Shown: one piece after another, positions 2,458-36,483 of the stretch
Layout of the letters: each line of letters begins with the position of its first letter
How positions within the stretch are numbered: position 1 is the first letter of the stretch
Virus record (IMG/VR): IMGVR_UViG_3300045988_045243
Span: 1-36,559 of that record
Length of the DNA: 36,559 nucleotides
DNA from: a virus
Strand: one strand, 5' to 3'
The notes under the pieces: model-generated
What the model saw: only the letters and a program-made list of their open reading frames with translations
Database searches by the model: none
What the model was told of the DNA's origin: nothing
Position numbers and translations under genes: made by a program

Positions 2458-2458
2458 C

Positions 2459-5924: not shown

Positions 5925-5935
5925 AAGGCAAAGAG

Positions 5936-6157
5936 GGTAACCGGTAACCAAGGTAACCGAGTAACCATGCGTTTTCTATATATACATATATGTGTGTGGG
6001 TGTGTGGATGGAACACAGACACAAAGTCCCTTATAAGGAAAATCAATGGTTACCTTGGTTACCATAAAGGAAATACCAGAAAAACCGCATAAAATCAACG
6101 AAAAACAGGGTAACCGAATTGTGGTTACAAAATTGTAAAAATGGTTACGTTGGTTAC
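5936..6157. repeat. Iteron cluster: 10 copies of GGTAAC(C)/GGTTAC(C) around an AT/alternating-purine-pyrimidine core; candidate replication origin
   Basis: Copies on one strand: 5936, 5943, 5952, 5961 and 6109. Inverted copies: 6048, 6057, 6123, 6143 and 6152. The central tract is tatatatacatatatgtgtgtgggtgtgtgg. Confidence 0.6.
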
Positions 6158-6170
6158 GGAGGATAGGAAT

Positions 6171-6401
6171 ATGGAAGATATTATACAGAGAATCAGCGAC
6201 ATTTACAACGATTGCTGGAAAAGCTATAAGCAATATTTAGAAGATAACAATATGGCAGCATACAATAAGAGATCCAAAAAGCTCATGGAAAAATATTCGT
6301 GCAAATCGGACATTACAGATCTGCTGCTATGGTTTGCTGGAAAAGTAAATGCTCTGCACGAAATCTATATGGGAGGTGAGGGGCATGTCAATCATTCGTA
6401 G
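6171..6401 (+). CDS. Hypothetical protein
   Basis: ATG at 6171 follows GGAGGATAGG. The upstream ATG at 6141 lies inside an iteron. Confidence 0.55.
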   Translation: MEDIIQRISDIYNDCWKSYKQYLEDNNMAAYNKRSKKLMEKYSCKSDITDLLLWFAGKVNALHEIYMGGEGHVNHS

Positions 6402-6582
6402 CATTAGAGGTGGGAGTGCAGGTTTAAACGAAGAAGATAGGATGACAATTGCAGGACTTCTAATGAAGGCAGGATATAGGGTACAGATTGGTTATCGCGT
6501 TATTCCTGGGAACACAAAAGGCAAGAAGGAGTATGTGATCGAATATGAAGAAATTGAGCAGAAAGAATGTGCTGAGAAATGA
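6385..6582 (+). CDS. Hypothetical protein
   Basis: ATG at 6385 follows GGGAGGTGAGGGG. Confidence 0.5.
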   Translation: MSIIRSIRGGSAGLNEEDRMTIAGLLMKAGYRVQIGYRVIPGNTKGKKEYVIEYEEIEQKECAEK

Positions 6583-7039
6583 AATTCCGGGACAGATGAG
6601 TATTGAGGACTTTCCGGAATATCTACCGGAAAGTTATAGCAGGGGGGGGCAAATGAGCAGGGCAGAGGTAAGGCGCCGAAAGCGCGAAAATGAAAAGAAG
6701 GCTAAGACATTCGTAATGACCGCCGAGGAACTCCAAAAAGTCCGGCTACAGGAACGTGAGAAAGTTAAACAGGAGCTCCGAGAGCGTGAGGATGAGCTGG
6801 CAGAGCAAATATGGTTCATGCTCTTGGCAATACCGACCAATGTCTTGATTGCCGATTACTGGCCAAAGACAGCCAGGAAACGGATTCCGGAGTTCGTAGA
6901 AAAGTGTATGGATCTCTATCAAGCGTGGGAACAGGGTGCGGTAGATATGACACAGATGCAGGCGTTAACAGAAGAGTATGCCAAGATAAAGCTTGTTAAA
7001 GAGGGCACGGCAACAGCCAAAGTTGCAAAAAAGATGTAA
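6545..7039 (+). CDS. Hypothetical protein with a charged coiled-coil region
   Basis: The start is ambiguous: 6545, 6596 or 6653. The gene contains a G8 homopolymer at 6642..6649. Confidence 0.55.
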   Translation: MKKLSRKNVLRNEIPGQMSIEDFPEYLPESYSRGGQMSRAEVRRRKRENEKKAKTFVMTAEELQKVRLQEREKVKQELREREDELAEQIWFMLLAIPTNVLIADYWPKTARKRIPEFVEKCMDLYQAWEQGAVDMTQMQALTEEYAKIKLVKEGTATAKVAKKM

Positions 7040-7175
7040 AAAGATAGGGTAATTTAGGTGAGTATGCGTAACTAAAAAATAGCAGCGGACTATATGTCTT
7101 GCCGGACCGTCCACTGCTCATCTTTCTAAGGACATTATAACACATGCGTCCTTAGGAAACAAGGAGGACGATGTT

Positions 7176-8237
7176 ATGTGTACGAAAAAAGAAGAATTAA
7201 GAGACACAATATTAACAGGTATGCAGCCATTTTTAAATGCGCCACTTATGGAGATTCTGAACCAAGTAGTAGTGCAGGCGCTCTTCGGGATTGAGGTGAC
7301 AGAGAGTGAGACATTGCCGGCAACGATAGACGATACGAACCAGCGGATCATAGCAATCTATATGACCAAGAAAGCGCCGAAGCTAAGTCCAAAGACAGTA
7401 GAGTATTATATGCTCACAATCCGAAACTTTATCGAGTTCGTTCAGAAATCTCTTTTAGACGTATCCGACATGGATGTGGAGTTTTATTTACAGTCCTATG
7501 CCAGAAAAGGTAATCAAGCAAGTACGATTAATAACGAGCGCCGGAACTTAAGTGCTTTCTTCACTTGGATGAGAAAGAGCCATTTGAGAAGTGACAATCC
7601 AGTGGACAGTGTGGAACCGTATCGAGAGATGGACAAGCCTATTGACCATCTGACCGATGGTGAACTGGAAGCATTGAGAGATGCGTGTAAGGTTAAGGTG
7701 AGAAATAAAGTAACAGACTTGGACGAGTATAAAGAGAGCCTTAGAGACAGGGCGCTGTTGGAGTTTCTCCGGAGTACCGCTGTGAGGGTAAGCGAATGCG
7801 TATCGGTAAACGTGCAGGATATCAACTGGCAGTCTGGCGAACTTATGGTCTATGGACAGAAAAACAGGACGTGGAGAACCGTCTGCTTAGATGATACCGC
7901 GAAGTACCATCTGAAAAAGTACATCGATAGCCGAAACGATAAAGAGCCGGCACTGTTTATCTCCAGCAAGCGAGACTGTAAGCGATTAGCGAAACCGGGA
8001 ATTGAGAGTGCCATCGGCAGGATAGCAGAGAGGTCTGGACTTAAGAGACGAGTATATCCGCATCTCTTCCGTAAGACAACAGCAACCAATATGGTTAAAC
8101 GCGGCTGTCCGAGAGAATTGGTAGCGTTTTATCTTGGTCATAAAAACGGAGATGCGAGAACGCTTAATAAACATTATGCTGCTACTACTCCGGATCAGGT
8201 ACTTGGAGCGTTTAGGAAGTACGGTGCGGCTGCATAG
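7176..8237 (+). CDS. Tyrosine site-specific recombinase (XerC/D-like phage integrase family)
   Basis: N-terminal SAM-like core-binding domain. Catalytic pattern: R (TAVRVSE), HLFRKT (H-x-x-R), LGH and a terminal KHY tyrosine. RBS is AAGGAGG. Confidence 0.85.
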   Translation: MCTKKEELRDTILTGMQPFLNAPLMEILNQVVVQALFGIEVTESETLPATIDDTNQRIIAIYMTKKAPKLSPKTVEYYMLTIRNFIEFVQKSLLDVSDMDVEFYLQSYARKGNQASTINNERRNLSAFFTWMRKSHLRSDNPVDSVEPYREMDKPIDHLTDGELEALRDACKVKVRNKVTDLDEYKESLRDRALLEFLRSTAVRVSECVSVNVQDINWQSGELMVYGQKNRTWRTVCLDDTAKYHLKKYIDSRNDKEPALFISSKRDCKRLAKPGIESAIGRIAERSGLKRRVYPHLFRKTTATNMVKRGCPRELVAFYLGHKNGDARTLNKHYAATTPDQVLGAFRKYGAAA

Positions 8238-8345
8238 CAACTAACAGTATAGAACCTATACCAGTAGTGCGTGTCCTATACTGCTGGTTGGGTTAGATAG
8301 AATTAACTAAGTAACTAAATTAGTATTTAGGAGAGGTAATAGAAA

Positions 8346-8780
8346 ATGGAAGAGAGCGTTGACCTTGAATATTATGATTTGAAAGGTGGAACACACCACA
8401 TTTACATGGCTCCAGGAAATGTGCAGTGGATTTGCAACATTCTGTTTAATACAGAGAAAATGTTTGATGACTTTATCAATGATCCACCAGAGTGGGCAAA
8501 AGATATAGCCGGATGGGATTGGGATATGCAGATAAAACGTGATCGTATCCACAAAATACGAATGCAGGTCGAAGAAGGACTTGGATATAGCACAGAGGAA
8601 CATTGGAAGAAATGCTTAAAGAAACGTGGAAAGAAGAAAAATGATGATATTGGCGGAGATGCTTTAGAACTTGCATTTAATAGAGCGTATGAAAAGAAAA
8701 ATGAAGTTCCAAAAGAACCGACACAGGAAAAACTAGTCAAAAAGGATAAACAGATGAGCATCTTTGACATCATGAAATAA
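8346..8780 (+). CDS. Hypothetical protein
   Basis: ORF with RBS GGAGAGG. Confidence 0.6.
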   Translation: MEESVDLEYYDLKGGTHHIYMAPGNVQWICNILFNTEKMFDDFINDPPEWAKDIAGWDWDMQIKRDRIHKIRMQVEEGLGYSTEEHWKKCLKKRGKKKNDDIGGDALELAFNRAYEKKNEVPKEPTQEKLVKKDKQMSIFDIMK

Positions 8781-8805
8781 ACTGAGATTTAGTGAGGTGA
8801 TAAGT

Positions 8806-8961
8806 ATGCAAACTGTAGTTAGAACATATCCAACACCAACAAGATACAATTGCGATCCAGATTGTTACAAGATTTTAGACAAATTATTGCGTGATGGCTG
8901 GAAAGTAATTATGTGCAACAAGATAGGGAACGATCTGGAATATATCTTAGAAAAGGATTAA
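8806..8961 (+). CDS. Small hypothetical protein (51 aa), absent from the ORF track
   Basis: ATG follows AGTGAGGTGA. Hand translation: MQTVVRTYPTPTRYNCDPDCYKILDKLLRDGWKVIMCNKIGNDLEYILEKD. Confidence 0.5.
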   Translation: MQTVVRTYPTPTRYNCDPDCYKILDKLLRDGWKVIMCNKIGNDLEYILEKD

Positions 8962-8995
8962 GTCAAAGAATTAGATAAATTTTAAGGTGGGAAGA

Positions 8996-9283
8996 ATGGA
9001 TGAAAAGAAAATTGTAGAAGCGTTAGAAACTCTCAGTAAAACAATTGTTGATTTAAAAATTATGGAAGACGAAACGAATGGTGTTTTATCTGCAAATGTT
9101 TCGCCTTATGAAACAGCAATCGAAGCACTGGAAAAGCAGTTGTCGAAGAAAGTAATAGATAGAAGTTTAGTGAAAGATAATGAAGTCGTTGTTGGATCTG
9201 TTGGCAGATGTCCTTGTTGTAATGAAATTATTGATGATACTACGACAGTTTGTGATTGCGGACAGAAACTTAATTGGGCATAA
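8996..9283 (+). CDS. Hypothetical protein with a C-terminal zinc ribbon
   Basis: ATG at 8996 follows AAGGTGGGA. C-terminal motif is CPCCNEIIDDTTTVCDCG. Confidence 0.6.
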   Translation: MDEKKIVEALETLSKTIVDLKIMEDETNGVLSANVSPYETAIEALEKQLSKKVIDRSLVKDNEVVVGSVGRCPCCNEIIDDTTTVCDCGQKLNWA

Positions 9284-9349
9284 TAAATTATTTGAGTTTC
9301 CTGTAAGTCTCTTTTGAGTGGACTCGTAGGAAACTTTGGAAGGTAAGAA

Positions 9350-23409: not shown

Positions 23410-23467
23410 GTATGATGCACATGTGAGCCGATGAGCCGTGCTATTTTCGAAAGGATGTGAAGATAGT

Positions 23468-25900
23468 ATGGCTGATGGCTATTTGAATTTTGATACAAAA
23501 ATAAATGAGGCTGGTTTTAATAAGGGTATATCGAAGCTGAGTAATATTGCTCAAACCGGTCTCGGTGTTGTAGTCGGTAATATCGCAACATCTGCTATGC
23601 AAAAAATCGGACAGCTTGGTTCCGAGTTGGTTGCCGGTCTTAATGAATCATCCGCAGCATGGAAGACGTTCCAGGCTAATATGCAGATGAACGGGAAAAC
23701 TGCAGATGAAATCTCCAAAATAAAAGGAGAGTTGAAAGACTTTGCAGAACAAACGATCTACAGCGCATCGAATATGGCGAGTACATACTCCCAGCTTGAA
23801 GCGGTGGGAACCAAGAATACAACCGCTCTTGTCAAGGGATTTGGCGGTTTGGCAGCAGCTGCTTCAGATCCAACGCAGGCAATGAAGACGTTGAGCCAGC
23901 AAGCAACACAGATGGCAGCTAAGCCAAAAGTGGCGTGGGAAGACTTTCGATTTATGCTCGAACAGACTCCAGCTGGTATGGCTGCGGTTGCAAAGCAGTT
24001 GGGAATGTCTGCAACGGAAATGGTTGCGAGAGTAAAAGATGGGGAGCTTGCTACAGAGGACTTTTTTGATGCAATTGCAAAAGTCGGAACAAACGATGCA
24101 TTCACAAAGTTAACTACAGAATATAAGACCGTAGGGCAAGCTACAGACGGTCTGATTGAGACTCTGACTGGACAGTTACAGCCGGCGTTTGACACATTGT
24201 CACAGGTCGGAATTAATGCAATTAGTGGCATCACAGACAAAATAAGTGCTGGATCTCCAATTATTGAGAAATTGACCACAACTGTGAATACGCTTGTTGA
24301 TAAGCTGAACTCCATGTCTACGGAAGAGCTTGTGAACCTTGCCAAGATGGGAGGCTTGCTAGTAACAGCAGTACCGGCATTGGCAGGAATCGGCAAGGGA
24401 ATGGAAGTTGCAAGTACAGCATCAGGAGCGTTCACTAGTGCACTTAGCGGTATAGGAAATGGTGTAAAGAGCATTCCTGGAAAATTTGATTCTGCAAAGA
24501 AATCAATCGGAGGACTTGGAAAAAGTTTTGGAACATTAGGAAGCACGATCACTGGTCCATTTGATGTTATGATGCCGAAAGTAACTGGAAGTGTCCGAAA
24601 GATTGGAAGTACCGTTGCATCTCTTCCGGGTAAAATAGTCAGTCCAATAGGGAAGATAGGGAAAGCAGTTGCCGGGAAATTTCCAGGAATTACAAGTGCG
24701 TTTTCTGATTTTACTGGCTATTTAGGTGCGTGGGGTGGAAATGTAGGCTCCGCTCTTTCTGGTGTGCTTGGAAATGTCGGAAAGTTTATGCCGGGATTTG
24801 CCAAGCTTATGAACTTCGGTCTTGTTGCTGGTGTTCTTGTAGCTGGGCTTGGATTGCTCAATACGCAGTTTGGAGAGCAGATCAATACCATCTTAACGAC
24901 TATGCAGCTTAAAGGGCCAGAGGTGATTACCAATTTCTGTAATGGTATTGTAACAGCGTTGCCTAATTTGATTGCGCAAGGCGGTCAGATTCTTAACAAC
25001 TTGATGCTCGCGATTACAGCGAATCTGCCAGCAATTATCCAGGGCGGCATAGCCATCATATCGTCTTTGATTTCCGGAATTGCACAGCAGTTGCCGACCT
25101 TAATTCCAACAGCTGTTAATATGATTTTAACCTTGGCAACTTCATTGCTTAGTAATATTGATCAGATTATAGATGCCGGAATTGATTTGCTCGTGGGATT
25201 AGCACAGGGGCTTGTGAATGCGCTCCCTCAACTGATCAACAAAGCTCCTACGATTATTGGTCAGTTAGCTTCTGCCATTATTCGTAATCTTCCTAAAATT
25301 TTGCAGGCAGGTATTAAAATCCTTGGAATGTTGGCGACAGGTTTAATCCAAGCGGTACCTCAGCTGATTAGTAAGATTCCATCGATTATTTCGCAGATCA
25401 AAAACGCATTTACATCTATTGACTGGGGGACTGTTGGCTCTAATATCATTAAGGGGATTGCCAGTGGTTTGAAAAGTGCTGGCGGTGCGATCGTGGAGGC
25501 GGCAAAAAACGCGGCGAAGAGTGCGTTAAATGCAGCTAAAGATTTCTTGGGTATTCACTCGCCATCAAGGGTGTTCCGCGACCAAGTAGGTAAGATGATG
25601 GCGCTCGGTATGGGCATAGGCTTTGATAAAAATGTGCCGATAAAGAGTATGAATGCAAGCTTAAAAACAGCTTTAGGAAGCCTAAAAGAAAATGCAGGAA
25701 CTGTATTAAGCGGTGGAAGCTTAAACAGAGGTGGCGTTGGTCGAATGAAAGCGTTGAGTGATGCGACAGATGGCATTGACTATGACCGTCTGGAGAGAAT
25801 ACAAATGAAAGCAGCGGACAAGATGGCGAAGAGACCGATCTATCTCGATAAGAATAGAATAGACAAGCCGTTACCGAAAGGAGCAGTGCCAGTATGGTAA
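23468..25900 (+). CDS. Tape measure protein
   Basis: 810 aa, Ala/Gly/Ile-rich helical repeats with a TM-like central region. ATG at 23468. Confidence 0.85.
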   Translation: MADGYLNFDTKINEAGFNKGISKLSNIAQTGLGVVVGNIATSAMQKIGQLGSELVAGLNESSAAWKTFQANMQMNGKTADEISKIKGELKDFAEQTIYSASNMASTYSQLEAVGTKNTTALVKGFGGLAAAASDPTQAMKTLSQQATQMAAKPKVAWEDFRFMLEQTPAGMAAVAKQLGMSATEMVARVKDGELATEDFFDAIAKVGTNDAFTKLTTEYKTVGQATDGLIETLTGQLQPAFDTLSQVGINAISGITDKISAGSPIIEKLTTTVNTLVDKLNSMSTEELVNLAKMGGLLVTAVPALAGIGKGMEVASTASGAFTSALSGIGNGVKSIPGKFDSAKKSIGGLGKSFGTLGSTITGPFDVMMPKVTGSVRKIGSTVASLPGKIVSPIGKIGKAVAGKFPGITSAFSDFTGYLGAWGGNVGSALSGVLGNVGKFMPGFAKLMNFGLVAGVLVAGLGLLNTQFGEQINTILTTMQLKGPEVITNFCNGIVTALPNLIAQGGQILNNLMLAITANLPAIIQGGIAIISSLISGIAQQLPTLIPTAVNMILTLATSLLSNIDQIIDAGIDLLVGLAQGLVNALPQLINKAPTIIGQLASAIIRNLPKILQAGIKILGMLATGLIQAVPQLISKIPSIISQIKNAFTSIDWGTVGSNIIKGIASGLKSAGGAIVEAAKNAAKSALNAAKDFLGIHSPSRVFRDQVGKMMALGMGIGFDKNVPIKSMNASLKTALGSLKENAGTVLSGGSLNRGGVGRMKALSDATDGIDYDRLERIQMKAADKMAKRPIYLDKNRIDKPLPKGAVPVW

Positions 25901-26679
25901 GAGCGTATTATAAAAACAGTAAAGGAGAGGTGCTTTGGCTGACCAAGGCGCCTTTTAAAACTGTAGAGTCAGACTGGTTTGATTCCAGTTGGGAAGATTC
26001 TACAGAGGGATACGAGAAAACAGTATCTATAGATGTCTTTGGAAAACGAGAAGAATTTACGTCCAATATGGAAAAATTATACAGGGTGATATCTTACGAT
26101 TCTGAGATGGGTGCTCTTGGCCGACTGTACGTGAACGATACGTTTCTTCCGTGCCAGATCATCCGTACATCCAAAAGTGGATGGAAGGGGTATGTGTACA
26201 GTGAGGTAGAATTAACGTTTTGGGCGCCGGAACTCTCATGGATCACAGAAGTTAAAAAGAGCTTCTATCCACAGACTATTGCGAAAGCGGCAGACGGTTT
26301 GGATTTCCCGCTTGATTTTCCTTTTGATTTCGCAAACGAGAAAAGGGGATCAGAAGTATTCGAGGTTGATCATATCATTTCTTCTGATTTTGAAATGACA
26401 ATATATGGTCCATGTGTGAACCCAAGAGTGCTAATAAACGGATATCCTTATGAGGTTTTAACTACATTAGAAGCTGGGGAATATCTTGTGATAAATAGTG
26501 CGGAGCAGACAGTTGTAAAACACTTAAATAATGGTCTTATATCGAATCTATTTGATGTAAGAGGTTATGAATACTCTATTTTTAATAAGATTCCATCTGG
26601 CATGATTCGAATGAATTGGACTGGTGACTATGGTATTGATTTAGTTCTGTATTTAAAGAGGAGGGAAGCAGCATGGTAA
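25894..26679 (+). CDS. Distal tail protein (Dit, siphovirus tail family)
   Basis: Immediately after, and overlapping, the tape measure gene. 261 aa. Confidence 0.65.
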   Translation: MVRAYYKNSKGEVLWLTKAPFKTVESDWFDSSWEDSTEGYEKTVSIDVFGKREEFTSNMEKLYRVISYDSEMGALGRLYVNDTFLPCQIIRTSKSGWKGYVYSEVELTFWAPELSWITEVKKSFYPQTIAKAADGLDFPLDFPFDFANEKRGSEVFEVDHIISSDFEMTIYGPCVNPRVLINGYPYEVLTTLEAGEYLVINSAEQTVVKHLNNGLISNLFDVRGYEYSIFNKIPSGMIRMNWTGDYGIDLVLYLKRREAAW

Positions 26680-27665
26680 TACTTGCAACGAGAGATCGAG
26701 AAATTGGCGCAAGACCGCTAAGGGATGCCAACTGCAGTTTTGATGCGAATAACAACAAGACTTTTTCCGTGCAGATTGCAAGAGCATACTGGACAGAGGA
26801 CATGACCTTTGGAAATCTCGTATATGTTCCAAATACCGAGTTTGGTGGAATTATCGGAAATGTATTGACAAGTACTGCTCTTGATTATGTAGAGCTAAAA
26901 GGCTATACATGGCGTGGGCAGATGGATAAGAAAATCATACAGCCTCCGAACGGACAGGACTATAAACGAGTATCCGGTGAACTAAATACAGTGCTGAAGG
27001 CGCTGGTCGAGCCGGAGTTCGATGGTTTGTATGTTGTCCCAACAATAGATACCGGGGTATCGGTTTCCAATTATCAATTTGACAGATATTGCACCTTGTT
27101 AGATGGCCTTACAAAGATGCTTTCCAGTAAAGGATATCGGTTAGACATCCGGCACCGGAGAGAGCATGGGACGACCGGCTATATATCGGTCTGTGCAGTC
27201 CCAATTCAGGATTACTCGAAAGAGATTGAATTGTCTAAGGACTCTGGGCTAACTTATACGATGGACGATAAAAGGAACGGAGTCAATCACTTAATCGTTG
27301 CTGGTAAAGGCGAGTTGCAGGACAGAAACGTGCTACATCTATATGTACATCCGGATGGCAGCATTAAAAAGACACAGTATTACAAAGGACTCGATGAGAT
27401 TGCAGAAGTCTATGAAAATACGTCCACAGAGACAGCCCAGCTAGAGAGCCAGTCAAAAGATAAGCTCTTAGAACTTTGCAGCAAAAAGACATTTGGAATG
27501 GATATAGATAGACTCGGGCTGGAAGTATCTATAGGAGATATCGTCGGAGGGCGAGACTACCTTACTGGAATGTATATGGCGAAGCCAATAGAGAACATTA
27601 TTTATGAAGTTACTAACAGAATGGAATCGAAGATCTACGAGCTGGAAGGAGAGAATGAAGAATGA
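26673..27665 (+). CDS. Tail-associated baseplate protein (Gp37-like / Tal position)
   Basis: Assigned by position after Dit. 330 aa. Confidence 0.5.
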   Translation: MVILATRDREIGARPLRDANCSFDANNNKTFSVQIARAYWTEDMTFGNLVYVPNTEFGGIIGNVLTSTALDYVELKGYTWRGQMDKKIIQPPNGQDYKRVSGELNTVLKALVEPEFDGLYVVPTIDTGVSVSNYQFDRYCTLLDGLTKMLSSKGYRLDIRHRREHGTTGYISVCAVPIQDYSKEIELSKDSGLTYTMDDKRNGVNHLIVAGKGELQDRNVLHLYVHPDGSIKKTQYYKGLDEIAEVYENTSTETAQLESQSKDKLLELCSKKTFGMDIDRLGLEVSIGDIVGGRDYLTGMYMAKPIENIIYEVTNRMESKIYELEGENEE

Positions 27666-28438
27666 AGATAGTAAGCGGAAAGACCGGAACGCCACATGTG
27701 ACATCGGAGCAGTTCCGGCAGATCATAGAGGGAACCGTCGGGCAGGGAAGTTATATTTTGACATCCGGAGAGAACCTAGAACCGGAGTTAGCATCTAACA
27801 ATATGCTTAAGATTAGAGGCGGAATGATGTCACATCATGGGAACGTGTCTTGTGTGGAACTTAACACATACGACGAGGTAACGCTCACGAACGGAAGCCA
27901 AGGGGTGAAGAGAATTGACCTTGTTGTGAACCGATACACAAGAAACGATGAAACGGGGCTTGAGAAAAATGAGTGGATAGTAATCATTGGTACGCCGGAT
28001 GCATCTAGTCCGAAAGTACCGCAGCATACCATTGGCAATCTGCAGAATGGAGATTTGATTGATGATTGCCCAGTATTTGAGGTGCATTATGATGGGATCA
28101 ATGTCACAGAGGTTAAAAAGTTACTTCCAGTGATGAGTAATTTGGACTTACTAAATGGCAATATCATATCCGCAGAACACAAAGATATTGGCATACATGC
28201 TGTTAATGCAGGATCGTATACAGATATTGCTGTAGATCTTAAGCAATTTGGAATGAGTAAGATTGTATCTGTAATCCCAATTATGCAAGGTCGTAGTTCA
28301 TCATCGAGTTATGGCCTCTTAACATTGGGACTGTATGAGTTTAATCAAAACACAGCGACACTTAGAGCATTCAATGCTGATGGGGTAAAAAGGGAGCCGC
28401 GTATTAATGTGTGTGTAATCGGCTTTAAACAGCAATAA
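27662..28438 (+). CDS. Distal tail / putative receptor-binding protein, currently expressed form (constant part residues 1-166 plus variable C-terminus A)
   Basis: Last gene of the tail operon. It carries the left inverted repeat in codons D162-L-L-N-G-N167. Confidence 0.7.
   Translation: MKIVSGKTGTPHVTSEQFRQIIEGTVGQGSYILTSGENLEPELASNNMLKIRGGMMSHHGNVSCVELNTYDEVTLTNGSQGVKRIDLVVNRYTRNDETGLEKNEWIVIIGTPDASSPKVPQHTIGNLQNGDLIDDCPVFEVHYDGINVTEVKKLLPVMSNLDLLNGNIISAEHKDIGIHAVNAGSYTDIAVDLKQFGMSKIVSVIPIMQGRSSSSSYGLLTLGLYEFNQNTATLRAFNADGVKREPRINVCVIGFKQQ
28146..28161. repeat. Left inverted repeat ACTTACTAAATGGCAA of the putative invertible segment
   Basis: Exact reverse complement of 28762..28777, checked base by base. 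Confidence 0.95.
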
Positions 28439-28777
28439 TTTTTCTCAGCCCAAATCTTTTATTTTGGGTGTTAGAATTAGTCGTCTGACCAACAATTTTA
28501 TCGTTATGGATGTACAAATATTTTTGGCTCCAAGTATTCCAGAAAAGGTTAAATTGATGCCCATCTCCCGGTCGGCTTTCGACAAGAGTCTTTGGAACAA
28601 AACAACTATGCCAAGCGTAATCTTGTGCTTTTTCGTTCTCCACAAACGAGAAAACCAAAACAATTCCGCTTTTGGTTTGGTCTATAGGTGTGGATAATTT
28701 AACCTCTTGTCCGCCTTGCATATAAAGAAATCCATCCCATAAAGTATTTTGTTCTTTTATTTTGCCATTTAGTAAGT
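28425..28777 (-). CDS. Start-less, promoter-less alternative C-terminal cassette B for the tail protein
   Basis: Hand translation: YLLNGKIKEQNTLWDGFLYMQGGQEVKLS...NKRFGLRKIIAV. Protein-like composition, open for about 117 codons. There is no ATG/GTG/TTG between the repeat and Met54. Its stop overlaps the stop of 27662..28438 tail-to-tail by 14 nt. Confidence 0.65.
28762..28777. repeat. Right inverted repeat (TTGCCATTTAGTAAGT on the + strand)
   Basis: Reverse complement of 28146..28161. It lies in codons L-L-N-G-K of the minus-strand ORF, in the same frame phase as the left copy. Confidence 0.95.
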
Positions 28778-28798
28778 AAAAATGTAACTCGTCAACCA

Positions 28799-28823
28799 GA
28801 GAGCCATAGTGGCTCTCGTTTTT
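28799..28823 (+). terminator. Rho-independent terminator just outside the invertible segment
   Basis: GAGAGCCA-tag-TGGCTCTC followed by GTTTTTA. Confidence 0.7.
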
Positions 28824-28854
28824 ATGTGTGCGACATCGCACAGAAAGGAGTAAT

Positions 28855-29529
28855 ATGAAAATTATATTCAACGATGCCACGGAACTACAGGTACAAAAGG
28901 TTGAGCAAAAAGGCGACTATCTTCGCGTTTTAACCGTGTCGGCAACACCGGAGCAGTTGAGAAGAATCTTTGAAGATATAGTAAAAACCGCAACTATGGT
29001 AGTAGAAGAGCGTGGACAAAAAGGAGAGCCACTTGTAGGATATACGACATTCTATCGTACGGAAGAGTATCCGGGGAAAATTTATGGAATTGTACAGTAC
29101 CGACCAGAAAGAACTCCAGAAGCACAGACAGAAGTGCAAGAAGCTGCAATCATAATGGCGAAGATACAGGCGGAAAGCCTTCCAGAGGAACAGGCATTAC
29201 AGGTTAAAGCTCTGTACGATTCATGGAGCGGAGATGGAGTTGCTTATAAAACAGGTAAATATCTTACATATAAAGATATCTTGTACAAGGTACTTCAAAA
29301 TCATACATCTCAGACCGACTGGACACCGGACACAGCTTCCAGTCTATACGCAAAGGTACTTACAGATCCATCCGGGAAGGTGCTGCCTTGGGAGCAGCCA
29401 CAAAGCACCAATCCATATAAAAAAGGAGATCGAGTAACCCACAAGGGAAAAACTTGGGAGTCTTTGGTGGATAGTAATGTCTGGGAACCGGGAGCGGTTG
29501 GAACGGAAAGCCTATGGAAAGAAGTATAA
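28855..29529 (+). CDS. Tail/host-recognition accessory protein with two C-terminal CBM5/12-like carbohydrate-binding repeats
   Basis: ATG at 28855 follows GAAAGGAG. The repeats are AYKTGKYLTYKDILYKVLQNHTSQTDWTPD..SLYAKV and PYKKGDRVTHKGKTWESLVDSNVWEPG..SLWKEV. Confidence 0.6.
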   Translation: MKIIFNDATELQVQKVEQKGDYLRVLTVSATPEQLRRIFEDIVKTATMVVEERGQKGEPLVGYTTFYRTEEYPGKIYGIVQYRPERTPEAQTEVQEAAIIMAKIQAESLPEEQALQVKALYDSWSGDGVAYKTGKYLTYKDILYKVLQNHTSQTDWTPDTASSLYAKVLTDPSGKVLPWEQPQSTNPYKKGDRVTHKGKTWESLVDSNVWEPGAVGTESLWKEV

Positions 29530-29546
29530 GAAAGGAAAAATAATCT

Positions 29547-29855
29547 ATGGATACACCAATTGATAGAGCAGAGCACCTAGAGTTTGCAAAGCGAATGGAA
29601 GATGAGCATAAGCGCATCAACCACCGTCTTACGGACTTGGAAGAAACCGTGCGCCAGATAGGGGAACTGACTACCAGTGTGCACAGCTTAGCACAGAGTG
29701 TGGAGCAGTTGGTTAAGTCCCAGAACCGACAGGAGAGCCGGTTGGAAGAACTGGAAAACAGGGACGGTGACACATGGCGCAAGGTTAAGTGGTACTTATT
29801 AACATTAGCGATCGGAGCAGTGTTTGGGCTTTTGGTCGCACAGATTGGATTGTAG
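29547..29855 (+). CDS. xhlA: XhlA-family lysis-associated membrane protein
   Basis: Coiled-coil N-terminus (RLTDLEETV..RLEELENR) and a single C-terminal TM segment, directly upstream of the holin. Confidence 0.7.
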   Translation: MDTPIDRAEHLEFAKRMEDEHKRINHRLTDLEETVRQIGELTTSVHSLAQSVEQLVKSQNRQESRLEELENRDGDTWRKVKWYLLTLAIGAVFGLLVAQIGL

Positions 29856-30954: not shown

Positions 30955-31016
30955 GTACTATAGAAATTGTACTAAAAAGTTCGCTCCAAACGGAGCAATA
31001 AACTTAGTACAAGACA

Positions 31017-32408
31017 CTACAAAAAGTCAACACTTTCTACCGTGTAATTTTCATTCAAATGAATTTCTTCTATGGTAGATCTCCAGAATGTGCGCCGATT
31101 TTCCGGTGTTAATTGTTCATATATTTTCTTGAAATCGGAGCGCAGGAGTTCTTCCAGATATGTAAAATCTTTTTCGGCTTCCGGATGGATAGCGGAAAGC
31201 TCTTTCAGTTCTTTTTCAATCCGGTCATATTCAGCACTGTAATATTCCCATGTGATGCGGTCCTTCTGGAAGAGTAGATTTAAGCGATCCAGTTCTTTGT
31301 TTAGCTTTTCTGGTGTTCGTGTATCTTTCATTTTCTTTTTCTGTTCGCAGATCTTCGTATATCGAATCTGATATTTCTTATATTCTTCTGATAAATTTTC
31401 AAGTAGATATTTTTCGATGAGGTTTTGACTGACTCGGTGTCGGCTGGTACATAACCGATCAAGGATGGCACGGTTGCAGCGATAATAGCAATAGGTCCGC
31501 TTTTCTTTTGTCTTCCGGTTTATGATAGAAGAGCAGCCAGTACCGGCTAGTTTTTGTCCGCATACTGGACACCTTATCAGCCCGCTGAATAAGTAGATTC
31601 TTCCGGATGGAGTCTGCTTTATGTTTTTTCTAGAAAGCTCTTGAAGCTGAAGCCATTCCTGTTCCGTGATATAAGCTGGGCAGTAGGGGATGCCACGGTA
31701 GGTGCCTTTGTAAAATTCACTTGATACCATAGTGCGTAGCATACTATAAGAGAAATCTGGATAATAATGCTTCTGCATATATCTTACAGTTTCCGATTTA
31801 TTCTGGTGAGTGAGCAGATATTTGAAAAAAGCTTCGGTGGCTTCTTCCGTTTCCGGATCTTTGATCATTCGCTTCACACCATCCACAACACCGGACTTAT
31901 AACCAAACCCCATGTTAGCCTCTCCGAAAATTAATTTGCCTTGCCGGATAGATGCCTCATTTACAAATTTAATACGCTCAGAAGTAGTATCTACTTCATT
32001 TTGACCAATAGACAAGACAACATTAAGCTGCAGTCGTCCGTCTCTGGTTTCCATGTTGATACCCGGCTCGGATGCAGACAGCCAATGTACGTCATATTCG
32101 TCAAGGATGTCCTGTACTTTGTAGAAATCGGAGAGATTACGAAACCACCGATCAAGACGCCAGAAGAGTATAATATCAATTTTCCCGGCTTTTACATCTT
32201 CAAGCAGTGCGTGAATAGCCTTACGCTTTTTTAGTTCCTTACGGGCAGTTTTGCCCTCATCAGCATAGATCCCTACAACGATCATATTATGTTCTTTGGC
32301 GTAACGTTCTAAATATTCCCGTTGAGCTTCCAGAGACTTTCCGTGCATCATTTGCTCTGATGTGCTGACACGGATATAGATTGCGCAGCGTTTTATTTTT
32401 TCTGACAT
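31017..32408 (-). CDS. int: Large serine recombinase (phage integrase)
   Basis: N-terminal resolvase catalytic motif CAIYIRVSTSEQ, a recombinase domain, a zinc ribbon CPVCGQKL...YYRC and a C-terminal coiled coil. 463 aa. Confidence 0.9.
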   Translation of the reverse strand: MSEKIKRCAIYIRVSTSEQMMHGKSLEAQREYLERYAKEHNMIVVGIYADEGKTARKELKKRKAIHALLEDVKAGKIDIILFWRLDRWFRNLSDFYKVQDILDEYDVHWLSASEPGINMETRDGRLQLNVVLSIGQNEVDTTSERIKFVNEASIRQGKLIFGEANMGFGYKSGVVDGVKRMIKDPETEEATEAFFKYLLTHQNKSETVRYMQKHYYPDFSYSMLRTMVSSEFYKGTYRGIPYCPAYITEQEWLQLQELSRKNIKQTPSGRIYLFSGLIRCPVCGQKLAGTGCSSIINRKTKEKRTYCYYRCNRAILDRLCTSRHRVSQNLIEKYLLENLSEEYKKYQIRYTKICEQKKKMKDTRTPEKLNKELDRLNLLFQKDRITWEYYSAEYDRIEKELKELSAIHPEAEKDFTYLEELLRSDFKKIYEQLTPENRRTFWRSTIEEIHLNENYTVESVDFL

Positions 32409-32919: not shown

Positions 32920-33888
32920 CTAATAGAGTTTAGAGCCTTTCTTTCGATTACAACGCCAACAAAGCGTTTGTAAATTATCCTCAGTAGTTAAACCACCTTT
33001 AGAAACAGGGACTATATGGTCAATTTCTAATAAGAGGTTTGGTTCTTGCCTTATAGAAGCACCGCATTGTTTACAAGTAAAATTATCGCGTTCTTTAATT
33101 TGTTGGCGGAGCTTGCTGGTCATTAGCGCACGCTGACCAGCAGCGCTTTTTTTGAATTTAATTTTTTCAGATAAAAATAAAATGAATCTGTTTAGATTAT
33201 CTGGATCCATAACAACGTCACACTTTGTGGCAGCGTTACCACCAGAACTTGTATACTGAAACACATATCTTGGGAAATATGCTGTACTCATATCTACTTG
33301 TTTAAAGCCAAGATTTTGCTCTAGTTTTTGTTTACTAAACTTTTTAATGAGTGTTGGGACTTCATTCTGTATGCTATCTAAAATTTTCTTTTTTTCATCG
33401 TTTAAATGTTTTTTTCCTTCTTCAGCTGCTTCAAAATTGTTCAAAACATTTTCAAAACTTGACAAATCTTCTTCTGTAGCTTTTATTCCAAAGTACTTAC
33501 ATATATACTCAAATGGTTTTTTTCGAGCATTATCACAAACAGTACGAGAGCAGTTGTGTATGTTCGGCGCATATTCTTGATTTTTCAAGTATTTTCTTTG
33601 ATAATTCCAGCTACTTGCATCTTTGTAATTTGCATTTCCATAGTCTGTTTTATCAGAAATAAGGCTAGTGTGTTTAAGGTCTTCGATATGCTGGTTCAGA
33701 TCGTTGCAATCGTCAATATAATTTGTTATTTTTTGTTTTATTTCCAAGAACGAAGAGCTTTTGTAGTAGTAAATTTCATATGCTTTCCAAGCGATATATA
33801 CCAGTGCTGCAATCAAAAATAATGGCCATATTGCGCTAAACAAAGATACAATTAAACACAAAACGATTATTCCTAAAATGATTTCCAT
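32920..33888 (-). CDS. Membrane-anchored HNH endonuclease-domain protein (candidate defence/exclusion gene)
   Basis: Two N-terminal TM helices (IILGIIVLCLIVSLFSAIWPLFLIAALVYIAW) and a central region of about 230 aa of unknown function. The C-terminal HNH motif is CKQCG...EIDHIVPVSKGG..NLQTLCWRCNRKKG. One 60-nt line counted by hand gave 23% GC. Confidence 0.8.
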   Translation of the reverse strand: MEIILGIIVLCLIVSLFSAIWPLFLIAALVYIAWKAYEIYYYKSSSFLEIKQKITNYIDDCNDLNQHIEDLKHTSLISDKTDYGNANYKDASSWNYQRKYLKNQEYAPNIHNCSRTVCDNARKKPFEYICKYFGIKATEEDLSSFENVLNNFEAAEEGKKHLNDEKKKILDSIQNEVPTLIKKFSKQKLEQNLGFKQVDMSTAYFPRYVFQYTSSGGNAATKCDVVMDPDNLNRFILFLSEKIKFKKSAAGQRALMTSKLRQQIKERDNFTCKQCGASIRQEPNLLLEIDHIVPVSKGGLTTEDNLQTLCWRCNRKKGSKLY

Positions 33889-33920: not shown

Positions 33921-34391
33921 CTACATTGAGAAATCTATCCTACCAACATTTAAGTTGGGGATGAACATAATATAATAATTATCCAGCGTGGTTCCGACGC
34001 CGTATTTGTTGCGGTAACATGCCAAGCATTCTTCCAGAAATTCTTCTGTTACTTCTAGGTATTCAGCAATTTCGAATCTGCTCTGGCATCCATGCTCGAA
34101 CGCTTCGATGATACCGGACAGCCCAATCAGCTTATTGTAAGCCCACAAGCGTGCTTGACGTTCCTGTTTTCGGTTTCCGGTCAAATCCATGTCTAAGATA
34201 TTTCCGACAGAAGTGTGATGGTGACCGAGCTCTTCAGCTAGAGTGCAAGCCTTTTTCTTGGATGTCTCTATATCTTTTCTAATACCTATTTTATTTCCTT
34301 TTATACGCCCATCACTAGAGCGTAGCGGGAGTTCCTTCACTTTAAGCCCTGTATCGTTTGCTTCATCTAAAAGTGCTTCGTAATTGTTCAT
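33921..34391 (-). CDS. ImmA/IrrE-family metallopeptidase
   Basis: LAEELGHHH zinc-binding-like motif. The gene is immediately downstream of the XRE repressor. ATG at 34391 follows GGAGGTG. Confidence 0.75.
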   Translation of the reverse strand: MNNYEALLDEANDTGLKVKELPLRSSDGRIKGNKIGIRKDIETSKKKACTLAEELGHHHTSVGNILDMDLTGNRKQERQARLWAYNKLIGLSGIIEAFEHGCQSRFEIAEYLEVTEEFLEECLACYRNKYGVGTTLDNYYIMFIPNLNVGRIDFSM

Positions 34392-34444
34392 CGTATAACA
34401 CCTCCGATGCAAGTTTAGCATATTAGATGGTCAATAATTAGGAC

Positions 34445-34930
34445 TTACCACTCACCGTCCATTAAGTCGTCATCGTGCTTACGCATTTCATCCGTGACTT
34501 CGATGTCAGTGCGTTCGTGGGCTGCCTGAACTTCTAAATCAGTTTCCATATTTTGTAAAGATAAAAGTTGATCGATATAGTTGTCAGCTTTCTTGCGGTT
34601 TATTTCAAATAATCGAAGATATTTAATGAAATGATTTTTTTCACTTGGAGACAAAGAAGATATGTTCTCTATGGTTTCAAATAGATTGGCATTTGAGAAT
34701 ATATTTCCTATATCTTCATCAGTTACAGGCTCCCACCCCATTAAATATGACGGTGTAGTTTCAAGAGCTTTTGCAAAGGCAATAATTTTTGATTGTGGTA
34801 AATCTACAAGCCCTTTTTCTATTTTTGCTATCATACTCTTATCAGCGTATCCCATTTTGTCAGCTAATTCTGATTGAGTTAAATGTAACTCGGTTCTTCT
34901 TTCTTTTATGTTCTTATATAATTGAAGCAT
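34445..34930 (-). CDS. XRE-family HTH repressor (CI-like)
   Basis: HTH LTQSELADKMGYADKSMIAKIEKG. It is divergent from the Cro-like gene. Confidence 0.85.
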   Translation of the reverse strand: MLQLYKNIKERRTELHLTQSELADKMGYADKSMIAKIEKGLVDLPQSKIIAFAKALETTPSYLMGWEPVTDEDIGNIFSNANLFETIENISSLSPSEKNHFIKYLRLFEINRKKADNYIDQLLSLQNMETDLEVQAAHERTDIEVTDEMRKHDDDLMDGEW

Positions 34931-34950
34931 TTCGATACCTCCTTAAACTC

Positions 34951-34979
34951 ATAATATCATAGGATAGAAAATAATTCAA
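34951..34979 (-). promoter_or_regulatory. Candidate repressor promoter
   Basis: On the minus strand: TTGAAT, 17 nt, TATTAT. The -35 element overlaps operator copy 1. Confidence 0.4.
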
Positions 34980-35040
34980 CATTTTTGTGAAAAATGGTTG
35001 ACACAAATTCAACAGGATGTTATAGTAATGGTGTTGAATT
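34973..35040. promoter_or_regulatory. Three 9-bp operator-like sites AATTCAACA (34973, 35006) and inverted TGTTGAATT (35032)
   Basis: Exact 9-mers read directly from the sequence. They overlap both divergent promoters. Confidence 0.5.
34998..35026 (+). promoter_or_regulatory. Candidate early lytic promoter
   Basis: TTGACA, 17 nt, TATAGT. Confidence 0.5.
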
Positions 35041-35067
35041 TAATGCAACATAGAAAGGAGGATGAAA

Positions 35068-35283
35068 ATGCCGGATGTTATTCTTTTAAAAGAAAAAATC
35101 AAAGAGAGTGGAATGACAGTTAAGGCCATTGCGGAGAAGAGTGGAATTCTTAGAGAAACGCTTTATAATCGCTTAAAAGGCAATGGCGAATTTACAGCTT
35201 CTGAGATTGTTTCTCTTACAAGAGTTTTAAATCTTTCTATTTCTGAAAGAGACAAAATTTTTTTAAACGAAAAGTTGAATTAA
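35068..35283 (+). CDS. Cro-like / DUF739-type HTH protein
   Basis: ATG at 35068 follows AAAGGAGG. The sequence is LLKEKIKESGMTVKAIAEKSGILRETLYNRLKG.GEFTASEIVSLTRVLNL. Confidence 0.7.
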   Translation: MPDVILLKEKIKESGMTVKAIAEKSGILRETLYNRLKGNGEFTASEIVSLTRVLNLSISERDKIFLNEKLN

Positions 35284-35309
35284 ATGACACATTTGGGGAA
35301 GGAGGAAAC

Positions 35310-36065
35310 ATGAACGAATTAATCAAAATCAACTATGAAACAGAACAGCCGACAGTATCGGCAAGAGATTTACATGAAAAATTGAATATTGGAACCAAGT
35401 TTACTACATGGTTTGAAAGAATGAAAGAATACGGATTTACAGAAGGAAATGAGTTTTTCCCAGAATTGGGAGAAACCTCGGAACAAGGCGGAAGACCGGC
35501 AACAGATTTCCAAATTTCCATTGACATGGCAAAACAGATTTGCATGATTCAGAGGACACCAGAAGGGAAAAAGATTCGCCAGTATTTCATTGACCTAGAG
35601 AAAGCATGGAACACACCGGAACAAATTTTTGCAAGAGCATTGAAGATGGCAGACGAAGAGTTGCGGCGGGTGAAGGCTGATAATCAGTATTTGATTGCCG
35701 ACAACGAACGTATGAAGCCGAAAGAAATTTTTGCAGATGCTGTAGCAAGCAGTAAAACATCTATTTTGGTTGGTGATTTAGCTAAGTTACTGAAGCAGAA
35801 CGGAGTAGAGACAGGGCAGAAAAGATTGTTTCAGTGGTTACGGGATAATGGCTATTTGATTAAAAGGTCAGGAGCCGATTATAACAGCCCTACACAGCGC
35901 GCAATGGAAATGAAGTTGTTTGAGATTAAGGAAACGACAATTAGTAACCCAGATGGAAGCACCAGAACCACTAAGACGACTAAGGTTACAGGAAAGGGAC
36001 AGCAGTATTTCATTAATAAGTTTTTGGGCGGGGATCGGCTTAGCACGGAAGAGGAGGTGGGGTAG
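35310..36065 (+). CDS. Antirepressor (AntA/AntB N-terminal domain plus KilAC C-terminal domain)
   Basis: N-terminal PTVSARDLHEKLNIGTKFTTWFERM..YGF.EG.EF and C-terminal ILVGDLAKLLKQNGVETGQKRLFQWLRDNGYLIKR. Confidence 0.8.
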   Translation: MNELIKINYETEQPTVSARDLHEKLNIGTKFTTWFERMKEYGFTEGNEFFPELGETSEQGGRPATDFQISIDMAKQICMIQRTPEGKKIRQYFIDLEKAWNTPEQIFARALKMADEELRRVKADNQYLIADNERMKPKEIFADAVASSKTSILVGDLAKLLKQNGVETGQKRLFQWLRDNGYLIKRSGADYNSPTQRAMEMKLFEIKETTISNPDGSTRTTKTTKVTGKGQQYFINKFLGGDRLSTEEEVG

Positions 36066-36191
36066 ATGAAAAGAGAGGATGATTGGATCAAGGAAACAGA
36101 TAAAAAAATAATCCACTACATATGGACTATTTTCCTCAGCATGATGATTTCCATTATAACAACTTTGTCAGTAGTAGCGTTACTAGGGTAG
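36066..36191 (+). CDS. Small membrane protein (41 aa), absent from the ORF track
   Basis: ATG directly follows the upstream TAG and comes after GAGGAGGTGGGG. Hand translation: MKREDDWIKETDKKIIHYIWTIFLSMMISIITTLSVVALLG. Confidence 0.4.
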   Translation: MKREDDWIKETDKKIIHYIWTIFLSMMISIITTLSVVALLG

Positions 36192-36483
36192 TAAAAAAAG
36201 AAACAAGAATAGGTGTAAGTATACTCCGAAACAGAAAAGATTTGATAGAAACCCACGTAAAGTACTTTCTGTGCAAGCATTTATGTGAAAGTTTAATTCC
36301 TATCACTCTTTCATTTCGGACAATTTCATCCAAATAACCGTTATCTGTAAGATATTTGATGGCAGCTGATACGAGAGGATAGGGAGCAATGTCCGAAAAA
36401 GGTTCTTTATCAACGTAAAACATACAAGTGTAATTTGGTGAAGATTCCAAGGCTTTAATAATTTTTTTTGATAGCTGATCCAT
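36154..36483 (-). CDS. Hypothetical protein (wHTH-like N-terminus, hydrophobic C-terminus), spanning the circular junction
   Basis: ATG at 36483 follows AAAGGAGAAAAAT. It is transcribed divergently from gene 117..488 across the junction. Confidence 0.6.
   Translation of the reverse strand: MDQLSKKIIKALESSPNYTCMFYVDKEPFSDIAPYPLVSAAIKYLTDNGYLDEIVRNERVIGIKLSHKCLHRKYFTWVSIKSFLFRSILTPILVSFFTTLVTLLLTKLL

Follow-up and report, generated by a model that had tools for sequence, protein, structure and literature searches.

The tail module in the temperate siphophage sequence of IMG/VR record IMGVR_UViG_3300045988_045243 (36,559 nucleotides, hereafter termed the window, by which the whole of this stretch is meant) contains a gene for a receptor-binding, fibre-like protein, the 3′ portion of which lies in a short segment bounded by an inverted repeat (Table 1). 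The first-pass annotation of this DNA, which was made from the sequence and a list of its open reading frames (ORFs), had proposed that the segment can invert in frame and thereby exchange the C-terminal domain of what it called the 'distal tail' protein. That designation had to be corrected, as Dit is the product of a different gene of the tail module and the gene in question encodes a small receptor-binding protein (RBP) or fibre-like protein. The repeat itself, ACTTACTAAATGGCAA, is exact over 16 bp and is present in exactly two copies in the 36.6-kb window, which are of opposite orientation and in the same codon phase, as was confirmed by sequence search and by in-silico flipping. No third copy was found in the window even when two mismatches were allowed, while shuffled sequences contained a mean of 0.04 matches to the 16-bp repeat. 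The repeat lengthens to 25 nt at 88% identity (28140-28164 and 28759-28783), and its 10-nt minimal core, TAAATGGCAA, is confined in the window to the same two places. Inspection of the compiled arm sequences revealed nothing convincing in the way of the dyad that is typical of tyrosine-recombinase core sites.

In-silico inversion of 28146-28777 places residues 1-166 in frame with KIKEQNTLWDGF...RKIIAV, which yields a protein of 278 amino acids (aa) instead of 258 aa. The stop codons of the two C-terminal cassettes overlap by 14 nt (28425-28438), and the hairpin at 28799 is the sole terminator-like site within 27400-29100; being located outside the segment, it serves either orientation. Both of these features had been pointed out in the first-pass annotation and both were found. 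A second 16-nt inverted repeat (94% identity), which links the descending arm of the terminator stem and its T-run (28808-28823) to a site inside the CBM gene (29018-29033), is probably a product of chance.

The minus-strand ORF downstream of the tail gene might be regarded as an independent small gene of 98 aa, starting from the ATG at 28721 and encoding, for example, a fibre chaperone. Gene callers predict this ORF in the window (28425-28721) and annotate it in every native-orientation contig, and a weak GGATGG is present approximately 10 nt upstream of the ATG. Against this, homology to tail-fibre C-termini and sequence conservation both start at the repeat, which precedes that ATG by 18 codons, and the same sequence forms the C-terminus of 278-aa proteins; moreover, no minus-strand promoter-like site was found in the region and the upstream frame crosses the terminator. 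A separate gene is thus scarcely credible, and the ORF is best described as the silent cassette that it had been taken for at the outset. The accompanying remark that it possesses neither a promoter nor a start near the repeat holds with regard to the promoter, while with regard to the start it has to be qualified by the internal ATG which gene callers do employ.

The fusion protein predicted from inversion is encoded in public assemblies, where P0001 matches it with 100% identity and 100% coverage, and a further 15 clusters are at least 89% identical to it over its full length, corresponding to approximately 32 contigs in all. In the contig encoding P0001 (L001, from ERZ28638844), gene spacing is as in native-orientation contigs, and comparison with the window revealed 0 mismatches in the immediate flanks (1,484 + 2,123 = 3,607 bp) and two mismatches in the approximately 8.7 kb of aligned flanks overall. 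Between the repeats, L001 is the exact reverse complement of the window with the exception of three substitutions at 28647-28651, which are clustered within 5 bp of the alternative cassette and constitute the sole differences in the segment. A second strain, recovered from five sequencing runs (L156-L160, from SRR32372946-55), likewise carries the segment flipped; its silent partner is the native tip of the window, 256 of 258 residues matching after in-silico flipping. The native protein, in turn, is present in exact form in at least 23 public contigs. Since only 0 to 2 bases differ in more than 8 kb of flanking sequence, the inversion is very recent; it took place in nature at exactly these repeats, and both states are common. 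The proposal of an in-frame invertible segment that swaps the C-terminal domain of the tail protein is thereby borne out, as it is by the conserved architecture described below.

Table 1. Positions of the switch components and of other features of the window
Feature	Position	Strand	Remarks
Invertible segment	28146..28777		632 bp; precisely the part that is reverse-complemented in L001 relative to the window
Left arm of inverted repeat, presumed crossover site	28146..28161	+	codons 162-167, D-L-L-N-G-N; core TAAATGGCAA at 28152-28161; inversion breakpoint in L001 and L156-L160
Right arm of inverted repeat, presumed crossover site	28762..28777	-	codon phase as left arm, in minus-strand open frame
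Receptor-binding (fibre-like) protein gene, window orientation	27662..28438	+	258 aa; from ORF list; third gene after that of the tape measure protein
Constant N-terminal domain 'Rc'	27662..28159	+	residues 1-166; ends in invariant N165-G166
Expressed C-terminal cassette	28160..28438	+	residues 167-258 (92 aa); predicted beta-sandwich tip domain
Silent alternative C-terminal cassette	28425..28763	-	112 codons + stop; no start codon at repeat; residues 167-278 after inversion
Intrinsic-terminator-like hairpin + T-run	28799..28824	+	stem-loop 28799-28817; just outside right arm
Xer-like ('armless') tyrosine recombinase, candidate invertase	7176..8237	+	early/middle module; ~20 kb from segment
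Large serine recombinase, 463 aa	31017-32408		2.2 kb from segment, next to attP
Tape measure protein (TMP)	23438-25900		tail module
Dit	25894-26679		tail module
Minor tail protein, 330 aa	26673-27665		tail module
Protein with CBM_5_12 repeats	28855-29529		224 aa, two repeats; right after terminator

Dozens of proteins share the N-terminal 166 residues at 94-100% identity but possess unrelated C-termini and total lengths of 247-308 aa, and N165 and G166 are invariant in alignments A1 and A2. The N-terminal 160-187 residues match only the N-termini of phrog_9994, phrog_25635 and phrog_13141; this constant domain (Rc) is homologous to gp15 of the Clostridium phage phiCs5676-1 (39% identity), and approximately 3,800 homologues of it are present in public data. 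Structure prediction of both C-terminal domains fused to residues 1-166, as envisaged in the first-pass annotation, returned confident models with RBP-type folds for both tips, whole-model Foldseek matches outside the C-terminal domains being disregarded. The native tip was modelled by AlphaFold with pLDDT values of 84-91 from residue ~168 onwards and, with Foldseek matches to 6cxb, 3wmp, 2ccv, 4ru5 and 4mtm, its predicted fold resembles H-type lectins, the R1-pyocin fibre tip and tailspike C-terminal domains. The protein P0111, which is 70% identical to the native protein over 98% of its length, carries Pfam domains H_lectin and Gp53-like_C, and Pfam assigns some of the tips carried by this constant domain to Gp53-like_C or H-type lectin domains. 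For the silent cassette, the match is to the last part of phrog_7389 'tail fiber protein' (614-731 of 732, E 2e-19), and the cassette sequence is expressed as a full-length fusion in P0001-P0016. The model of this alternative tip (pLDDT 80-90 from residue ~171; Foldseek match 9j1l_2, E 1.2e-7, 26% identity) resembles the monocin side fibre and the RBP of phages K and phi812. Both tips are confidently predicted to be independent domains which start right after N165-G166 and which adopt two different receptor-binding folds. Diversification by a diversity-generating retroelement, for which no search aimed at a reverse transcriptase or template repeat was made, seems less likely, as the tips are unrelated folds, which is beyond the reach of point mutagenesis of a single template.

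Conservation of this design was assessed in a set of 95 loci that contain a homologue of the N-terminal domain, of which eight represent the window phage itself, leaving 87 others. In 35 of these 87 loci (N-terminal domain 68-96% identical) there is an exact repeat, 11 nt or longer, the left arm of which falls at approximately codons 161-167, and all 35 yield upon in-silico flipping an alternative protein that is in frame and no shorter than 250 aa (250-308 aa). Approximately ten more of the loci end at the junction and were left unscored, while in L012, L014, L015 and some 30 other relatives no junction repeat was found even by a permissive search; these repeat-less relatives appear to be fixed, single-tip versions. 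The repeat sequences differ among lineages (ACTTACTAAATGGCAA, CTGAATTAAGTAGCAATTT, ACTAAATAGTAATTT, AAATAAGGATTTG and AATGCAGATTTGGCGGAGTT), and so do the cassettes. As the silent cassettes have remained open and in phase at approximately 35 loci despite this divergence, they must be under selection for expression. Reciprocal pairs, with the same two tips in opposite orientation, were observed in three other lineages (L024/L025, L034/L047 and L036/L038), and both orientations recur in four lineages.

In approximately 22 relatives a tyrosine recombinase gene is located immediately 3′ of the segment. More elaborate loci were identified in L022 (874-3467), L041 (2890-5628) and L056 (10495-13074), each of which holds four junction sites (two per orientation) and four C-terminal cassettes, with a tyrosine recombinase gene positioned between two cassette pairs (for example L056:11222-12238). 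These loci are true shufflons, and the family therefore ranges from fixed single-tip genes to four-cassette shufflons. The cassette-adjacent recombinase of L060 (11102-12094) loses similarity before the catalytic tyrosine through an apparent frameshift, and is possibly a pseudogene or the result of a sequencing error. One and the same tip (…KIEKxTLYSSAEKQIGVTDSGEP…) was encountered on two quite different constant domains, in L132 (reverse complement, 5193-5934) and in L009 (10001-10668), which suggests that cassettes are exchanged horizontally between phages via a shared junction site.

No recombinase gene adjoins the segment in the window, which does encode a second recombinase in addition to the integrase. 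The first-pass annotation had named the 7176-8237 gene product as a possible invertase, and this is the best-supported candidate. The gene belongs to the rightward early/middle module, where it is flanked by those of a primase-helicase and a sigma-like regulator, and it encodes an enzyme with a SAM-like N-terminal domain (residues 66-134) and a PF00589 catalytic domain (residues 183-335), the catalytic residues of which are intact, the catalytic Tyr being that of ...NKHY...; its top NCBIfam matches are XerA, XerD and XerC, all below cutoff. It can be aligned end-to-end with the cassette-adjacent or cassette-embedded enzymes of relatives (33% identity, E 2e-50, 150-163 bits), as opposed to a mere 21-24 bits with ordinary phage tyrosine integrases. 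Enzymes that are 30-37% identical to that of the window form an 'adjacent' clade, which adjoins cassettes at 44 of 54 loci and the sites of which are CTGAATTAAGTAGCAA. Two contigs that reach the tail region, L132 and L115, encode an enzyme 97-99% identical to that of the window. The tail region of L132 displays no nucleotide similarity to the window tail gene, and the constant domains of L132 and L115 both differ from that of the window, but in both contigs TTACTAAATGGCAA or TAAATGGCAA flanks a tip that can be inverted in frame. To judge by these sequences, the site follows the enzyme and not the tail gene. A search for the 14-nt core TTACTAAATGGCAA across viral contigs gave chance single matches among those listed. 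Given its homology to cassette-adjacent enzymes and the co-occurrence of the core site, it seems reasonably likely that the 7176-8237 enzyme is the invertase.

The large serine recombinase of the window (31017-32408) is the only serine recombinase that it encodes, and a weak secondary match to the PHROG family 'DNA invertase' (phrog_125, E 8e-22) raises the question as to whether it inverts the segment in addition to its role in integration. Its best match by far is, however, integrase (phrog_95, E 7e-101), and its domains (Resolvase, Recombinase and Zn-ribbon) are the set of a large serine recombinase. In metagenome contigs that contain prophage copies, the match to the window stops at 30990, approximately 66 bp beyond the lysin gene, after which host genes follow; attP therefore adjoins the 3′ end of the serine recombinase gene, which is the integrase gene of the phage. 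In addition, relatives with the same switch design carry tyrosine rather than serine recombinases, and large serine integrases employ att sites of approximately 40-50 bp, to which a 16-bp repeat is a poor fit. The probability that this enzyme inverts the segment is accordingly very small. With respect to the prophage end, L002 (9296 onward) diverges from the window at 30957, which is 33 bp before the 30990 of L001 and L003-L007, a difference that may reflect integration at another site or a variant att core.

Based on these findings we consider it quite probable that the locus is a two-state site-specific DNA inversion switch which changes the receptor-binding tip of a siphophage tail, with the phage's own 7176-8237 enzyme as the most likely invertase. 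The constant domain (residues 1-166) would presumably anchor the protein to the tail tip, with the 16-bp site placed at the domain boundary (…L-L-N-G…) and its inverted copy, 600 bp downstream, heading an antisense cassette that is devoid of promoter and start. Recombination from site to site would then invert 632 bp, so as to replace the lectin-like 92-aa tip in frame by a 112-aa tip resembling a monocin side fibre; each flip would silence the other tip, and the one terminator outside the segment would serve both states. The tyrosine recombinase would act in trans, from the early/middle module, on the core TAAATGGCAA. In this scheme it is the identity of the enzyme and the frequency and timing of switching that we infer.

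Several observations weigh against this interpretation. Among the 21 places listed, no sample was found to contain both orientations of the same phage; the two orientations were seen in different samples, and their coexistence within one clonal population is presumed. Contig 3′ ends do accumulate at the junction, as seven of 75 fall in a 110-bp interval where approximately 0.8 would be expected, with ten more near the right arm; this pile-up fits mixed orientations within samples, but it could equally be explained by co-occurring strains that carry different cassettes. Orientations confined to different samples would be expected if the switch were not active and the orientations were instead old fixed alleles, derived from rare illegitimate or homologous recombination between short repeats, in which case the repeat would simply mirror a conserved peptide hinge. 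Some nucleotide identity is indeed to be expected where the repeat encodes a conserved motif containing the invariant N165-G166. This explanation is nevertheless difficult to reconcile with flanks that are identical or nearly so in flipped and unflipped contigs, with silent cassettes that are open and in frame at some 35 loci, with the recurrence of both orientations in four lineages, and with the dedicated recombinases beside or inside the arrays of relatives, while a 16-bp repeat is shorter than efficient RecA-dependent exchange requires. Fixed alleles are thus quite improbable, and we hold with considerable confidence that the segment is an active inversion switch.

The remaining points of this kind concern the enzyme and the protein. 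The 'distal' clade, which comprises enzymes 42-99% identical to that of the window, is represented in 26 viral loci, none of which adjoins cassettes; its link to the switch therefore derives from the 33% homology and the two cases of co-occurrence. Clostridium phage phiCs5676-1 possesses a distal-clade enzyme as well as a homologous tail gene, and yet no junction repeat of at least 10 nt was detected in it. Furthermore, residues 1-168 were modelled poorly by AlphaFold (pLDDT <50, from a shallow alignment of 29 sequences), which makes the anchor role of the constant domain an assumption, and it is a prediction, albeit an obvious one, that the two tips bind different receptors.

The main rival as regards the enzyme is that the segment inverts by the action in trans of a host-encoded invertase, comparable to Mpi, which acts globally in Bacteroides. 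The lack of a recombinase gene beside the segment is in keeping with this, as is the fact that the clade of the window enzyme is never cassette-adjacent, and a 500-bp tail-gene inversion without a flanking recombinase has been described for which an enzyme acting in trans was suggested (PMC6109161). A host enzyme would, however, leave the second tyrosine recombinase of the phage unexplained in spite of its specific homology to cassette-adjacent enzymes, and it would not account for a core site that travels with the 7176-8237-type enzyme across phages of differing tail genes. We therefore consider a host invertase unlikely and favour the phage-encoded tyrosine recombinase.

The phiCs5676-1 genome (L364, OR574845; 12878-14556 and 36127-37173) encodes a true integrase and, in its early region, a second 'integrase' of the Xer-like kind, together with the homologous tail gene and an antisense ORF, the latter being abutted by a transposase gene. 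It is probably a decayed copy that supports neither side, and its switch was possibly inactivated by insertion of an insertion sequence element.

Of the systems described so far, the one closest to the window is the Rin shufflon of Bifidobacterium breve and Bifidobacterium longum prophages, in which Rc is constant, the Rv cassettes vary, the rix sites measure 11 bp and the tyrosine invertase is of the armless type (Mavrich et al. 2018, PMC6109161), and whose enzyme was termed the first phage-encoded tyrosine invertase (PMC6109161). It has also been noted in Eggerthella lenta prophages, where the cassettes are H-type lectins (PMC8778435). As Rin follows the same logic, the earlier claim that such a switch had not been described for a Gram-positive siphovirus lacking a Gin/Hin-type invertase does not stand. 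The two systems have a number of features in common: a siphovirus-type phage of a Gram-positive host with an RBP gene located after those of TMP and Dit as the target; a constant N-terminal part combined with promoterless C-terminal cassettes and a crossover site at the domain boundary; short sites (11 bp for rix and 10-16 bp for the window); an armless, Xer-like recombinase, to judge in the window by the SAM-like and catalytic domains of the candidate and by XerA, XerD and XerC as its best families; and the frequent occurrence of H-type lectin-like cassettes. The likeness extends to the constant domain, for which homology was found to a protein of Bifidobacterium phage PMBT6 (QDF14885; 29% identity over 174 columns, E 4e-13). 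The gene for this protein carries TTCCGTAACCC at codon ~167, which corresponds to the position of the window junction and which matches the published rix at ten of 11 positions.

In the PMBT6 genome (L366, MK932884; 4989-7385), TTCCGTAACCC is present at 5489, 5791 and 6082, with an inverted copy near 6499-6510, and the locus contains small ORFs followed by an adjacent gene for a 290-aa 'integrase' (a tyrosine recombinase), although the record bears no shufflon label. We infer that this locus is Rin-like, in a phage that is outside those originally described as Rin phages.

The window nevertheless differs from Rin in its Firmicutes (Lachnospiraceae) host and in its site, ACTTACTAAATGGCAA being unrelated to rix (TTCCCTAACCC). 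The window enzyme reaches 16-21 bits against the PMBT6 recombinase, which here stands in for the original Rin, and this is no better than the scores of ordinary integrases. With two cassettes and two sites the window represents a simple flip rather than a shufflon, and its enzyme gene is 20 kb away instead of flanking the cassettes, a flanking position being found in the approximately 22 relatives mentioned above. What is new in relation to the Rin systems is thus the Firmicutes hosts, the different recombinase clade and site, the two states and the distally encoded enzyme.

The tRNA-Met-integrated bifidophages 689b-1 and Bb423phi2 harbour an inversion of approximately 500 bp in a tail gene, with an 8-bp repeat and no flanking recombinase (PMC6109161). 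As in the window, a single segment comprises the 3′ end of a structural gene and a small antisense gene without a flanking recombinase. In those phages neither a gene function nor a candidate enzyme was named, whereas the window has predicted RBP-type folds and a phage-encoded candidate.

The first-pass annotation had likened the segment to the Mu G and P1 C switches. In Mu G (Gin), P1 C (Cin), p15B Min and e14 Pin, a constant fibre part is joined in frame to alternative C-terminal parts, which results in a switch of host range (PMC6109161). The in-frame exchange of a fibre C-terminus by inversion is shared with the window, and the comparison is apt in so far as functional logic is concerned, while the defining parts of these systems are absent from the window. 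Such systems belong to myoviruses of Proteobacteria and possess a small adjacent serine invertase, longer repeats and a co-inverted chaperone gene (U/U′). The window, by contrast, has no small (approximately 190 aa) adjacent serine invertase and no co-inverted chaperone gene, each half of its segment consisting of a C-terminal cassette alone with the stops arranged tail to tail, and its repeat measures only 16 bp. The Fis-dependent enhancer of Gin-type systems is not to be expected for a tyrosine recombinase.

A tyrosine recombinase that swaps C-terminal adhesin segments in frame is a feature in common with the shufflon of R64 and other IncI plasmids (Rci, pilV). In the sfx sites of R64 only a short asymmetric core is conserved, a pattern to which L132 and L115 may be likened, as the sequence on the constant side of their core is not conserved. 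The R64 target is, however, the tip adhesin of a plasmid-encoded conjugative pilus, with multiple segments and Rci adjacent, while that of the window is a phage tail gene. General surveys of gene-altering inversions include tail-fibre genes but not this family (PMC9881135), and no description of such a switch in phages of Firmicutes or Lachnospiraceae was found in the literature searched. A nucleotide search of GenBank phages with 26673-29600 likewise returned no match.

A broader scenario may be put forward tentatively, as one that we regard as possible rather than probable. In this scenario the switch would belong to a large family of RBP-tip inversion systems of human-gut Lachnospiraceae phages, the hinge of the constant domain being shared across phyla with Rin-type loci of Bifidobacterium and having been paired independently with different tyrosine recombinases, the genes of which would have moved between cassette-adjacent and distal positions. 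The distal enzyme would be made in lytic development and act in trans, such that a single burst might release virions of two receptor specificities. If this is true, the timing of switching in the lytic phase would differ from the switching of Mu in the prophage state.

The human gut is rich in phages of the Lachnospiraceae (Dorea, Mediterraneibacter, [Ruminococcus] torques and [Clostridium] scindens), which have hardly been studied by experiment. A programmed and reversible choice of tip, if confirmed, would help to explain how temperate phages persist across strain turnover, and tip switching would help to explain the breaks in metagenomic assemblies at this locus. The 16-bp site, the two cassettes of approximately 100 aa and the one candidate recombinase represent a compact set of parts for the testing and engineering of host range. 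With regard to annotation, the 'hypothetical' antisense ORFs that follow these tail genes, as well as the second 'integrase' of these phages, deserve to be re-labelled, and RBP switching by tyrosine recombinases is extended from phages of Actinobacteria to those of Firmicutes.

The window represents the whole genome of a temperate siphophage, excised and circularly permuted. Close relatives have Dorea, Mediterraneibacter, [Ruminococcus] torques and a Clostridium species as hosts, and the host of the window phage is a gut member of the Lachnospiraceae of Dorea type. The gene that follows the terminator (28855-29529) is itself followed on the 3′ side by holin-like genes and an amidase gene, and its product, with the CBM_5_12 repeats, might be a second, non-variable adhesin or a cell-wall-binding component of the tail.

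A number of contigs display irregularities relative to the window. In L167 (2601-3296), the sequence past the right repeat is the reverse complement of a 90%-identical N-terminal region, representing a co-occurring strain in the flipped state. That L167 might be a window-type phage with an adjacent recombinase was considered and rejected, the contig being an assembly chimera that crosses a Nextera adapter (AGATGTGTATAAGAGACAG) into an unrelated integrase fragment. Positions 1-2261 of L003 are joined to 2260-9329 (window 34137-36397 joined to 23921), by which the antirepressor region is fused to the middle of the tape measure gene, in either a heavily deleted prophage or a misassembly. L005 exhibits two internal deletions compared to the window (17508 joined to 21533, and 26876 joined to 27607), the second of which takes out most of the minor tail protein gene (330 aa) that immediately precedes the switch gene. 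Finally, a gene for a 322-aa protein bearing an HNH nuclease domain at its C-terminus occupies window positions 32920-33888 (minus strand), flanked by the serine integrase gene and an M78-peptidase/repressor pair, which is an unusual location for an HNH gene.

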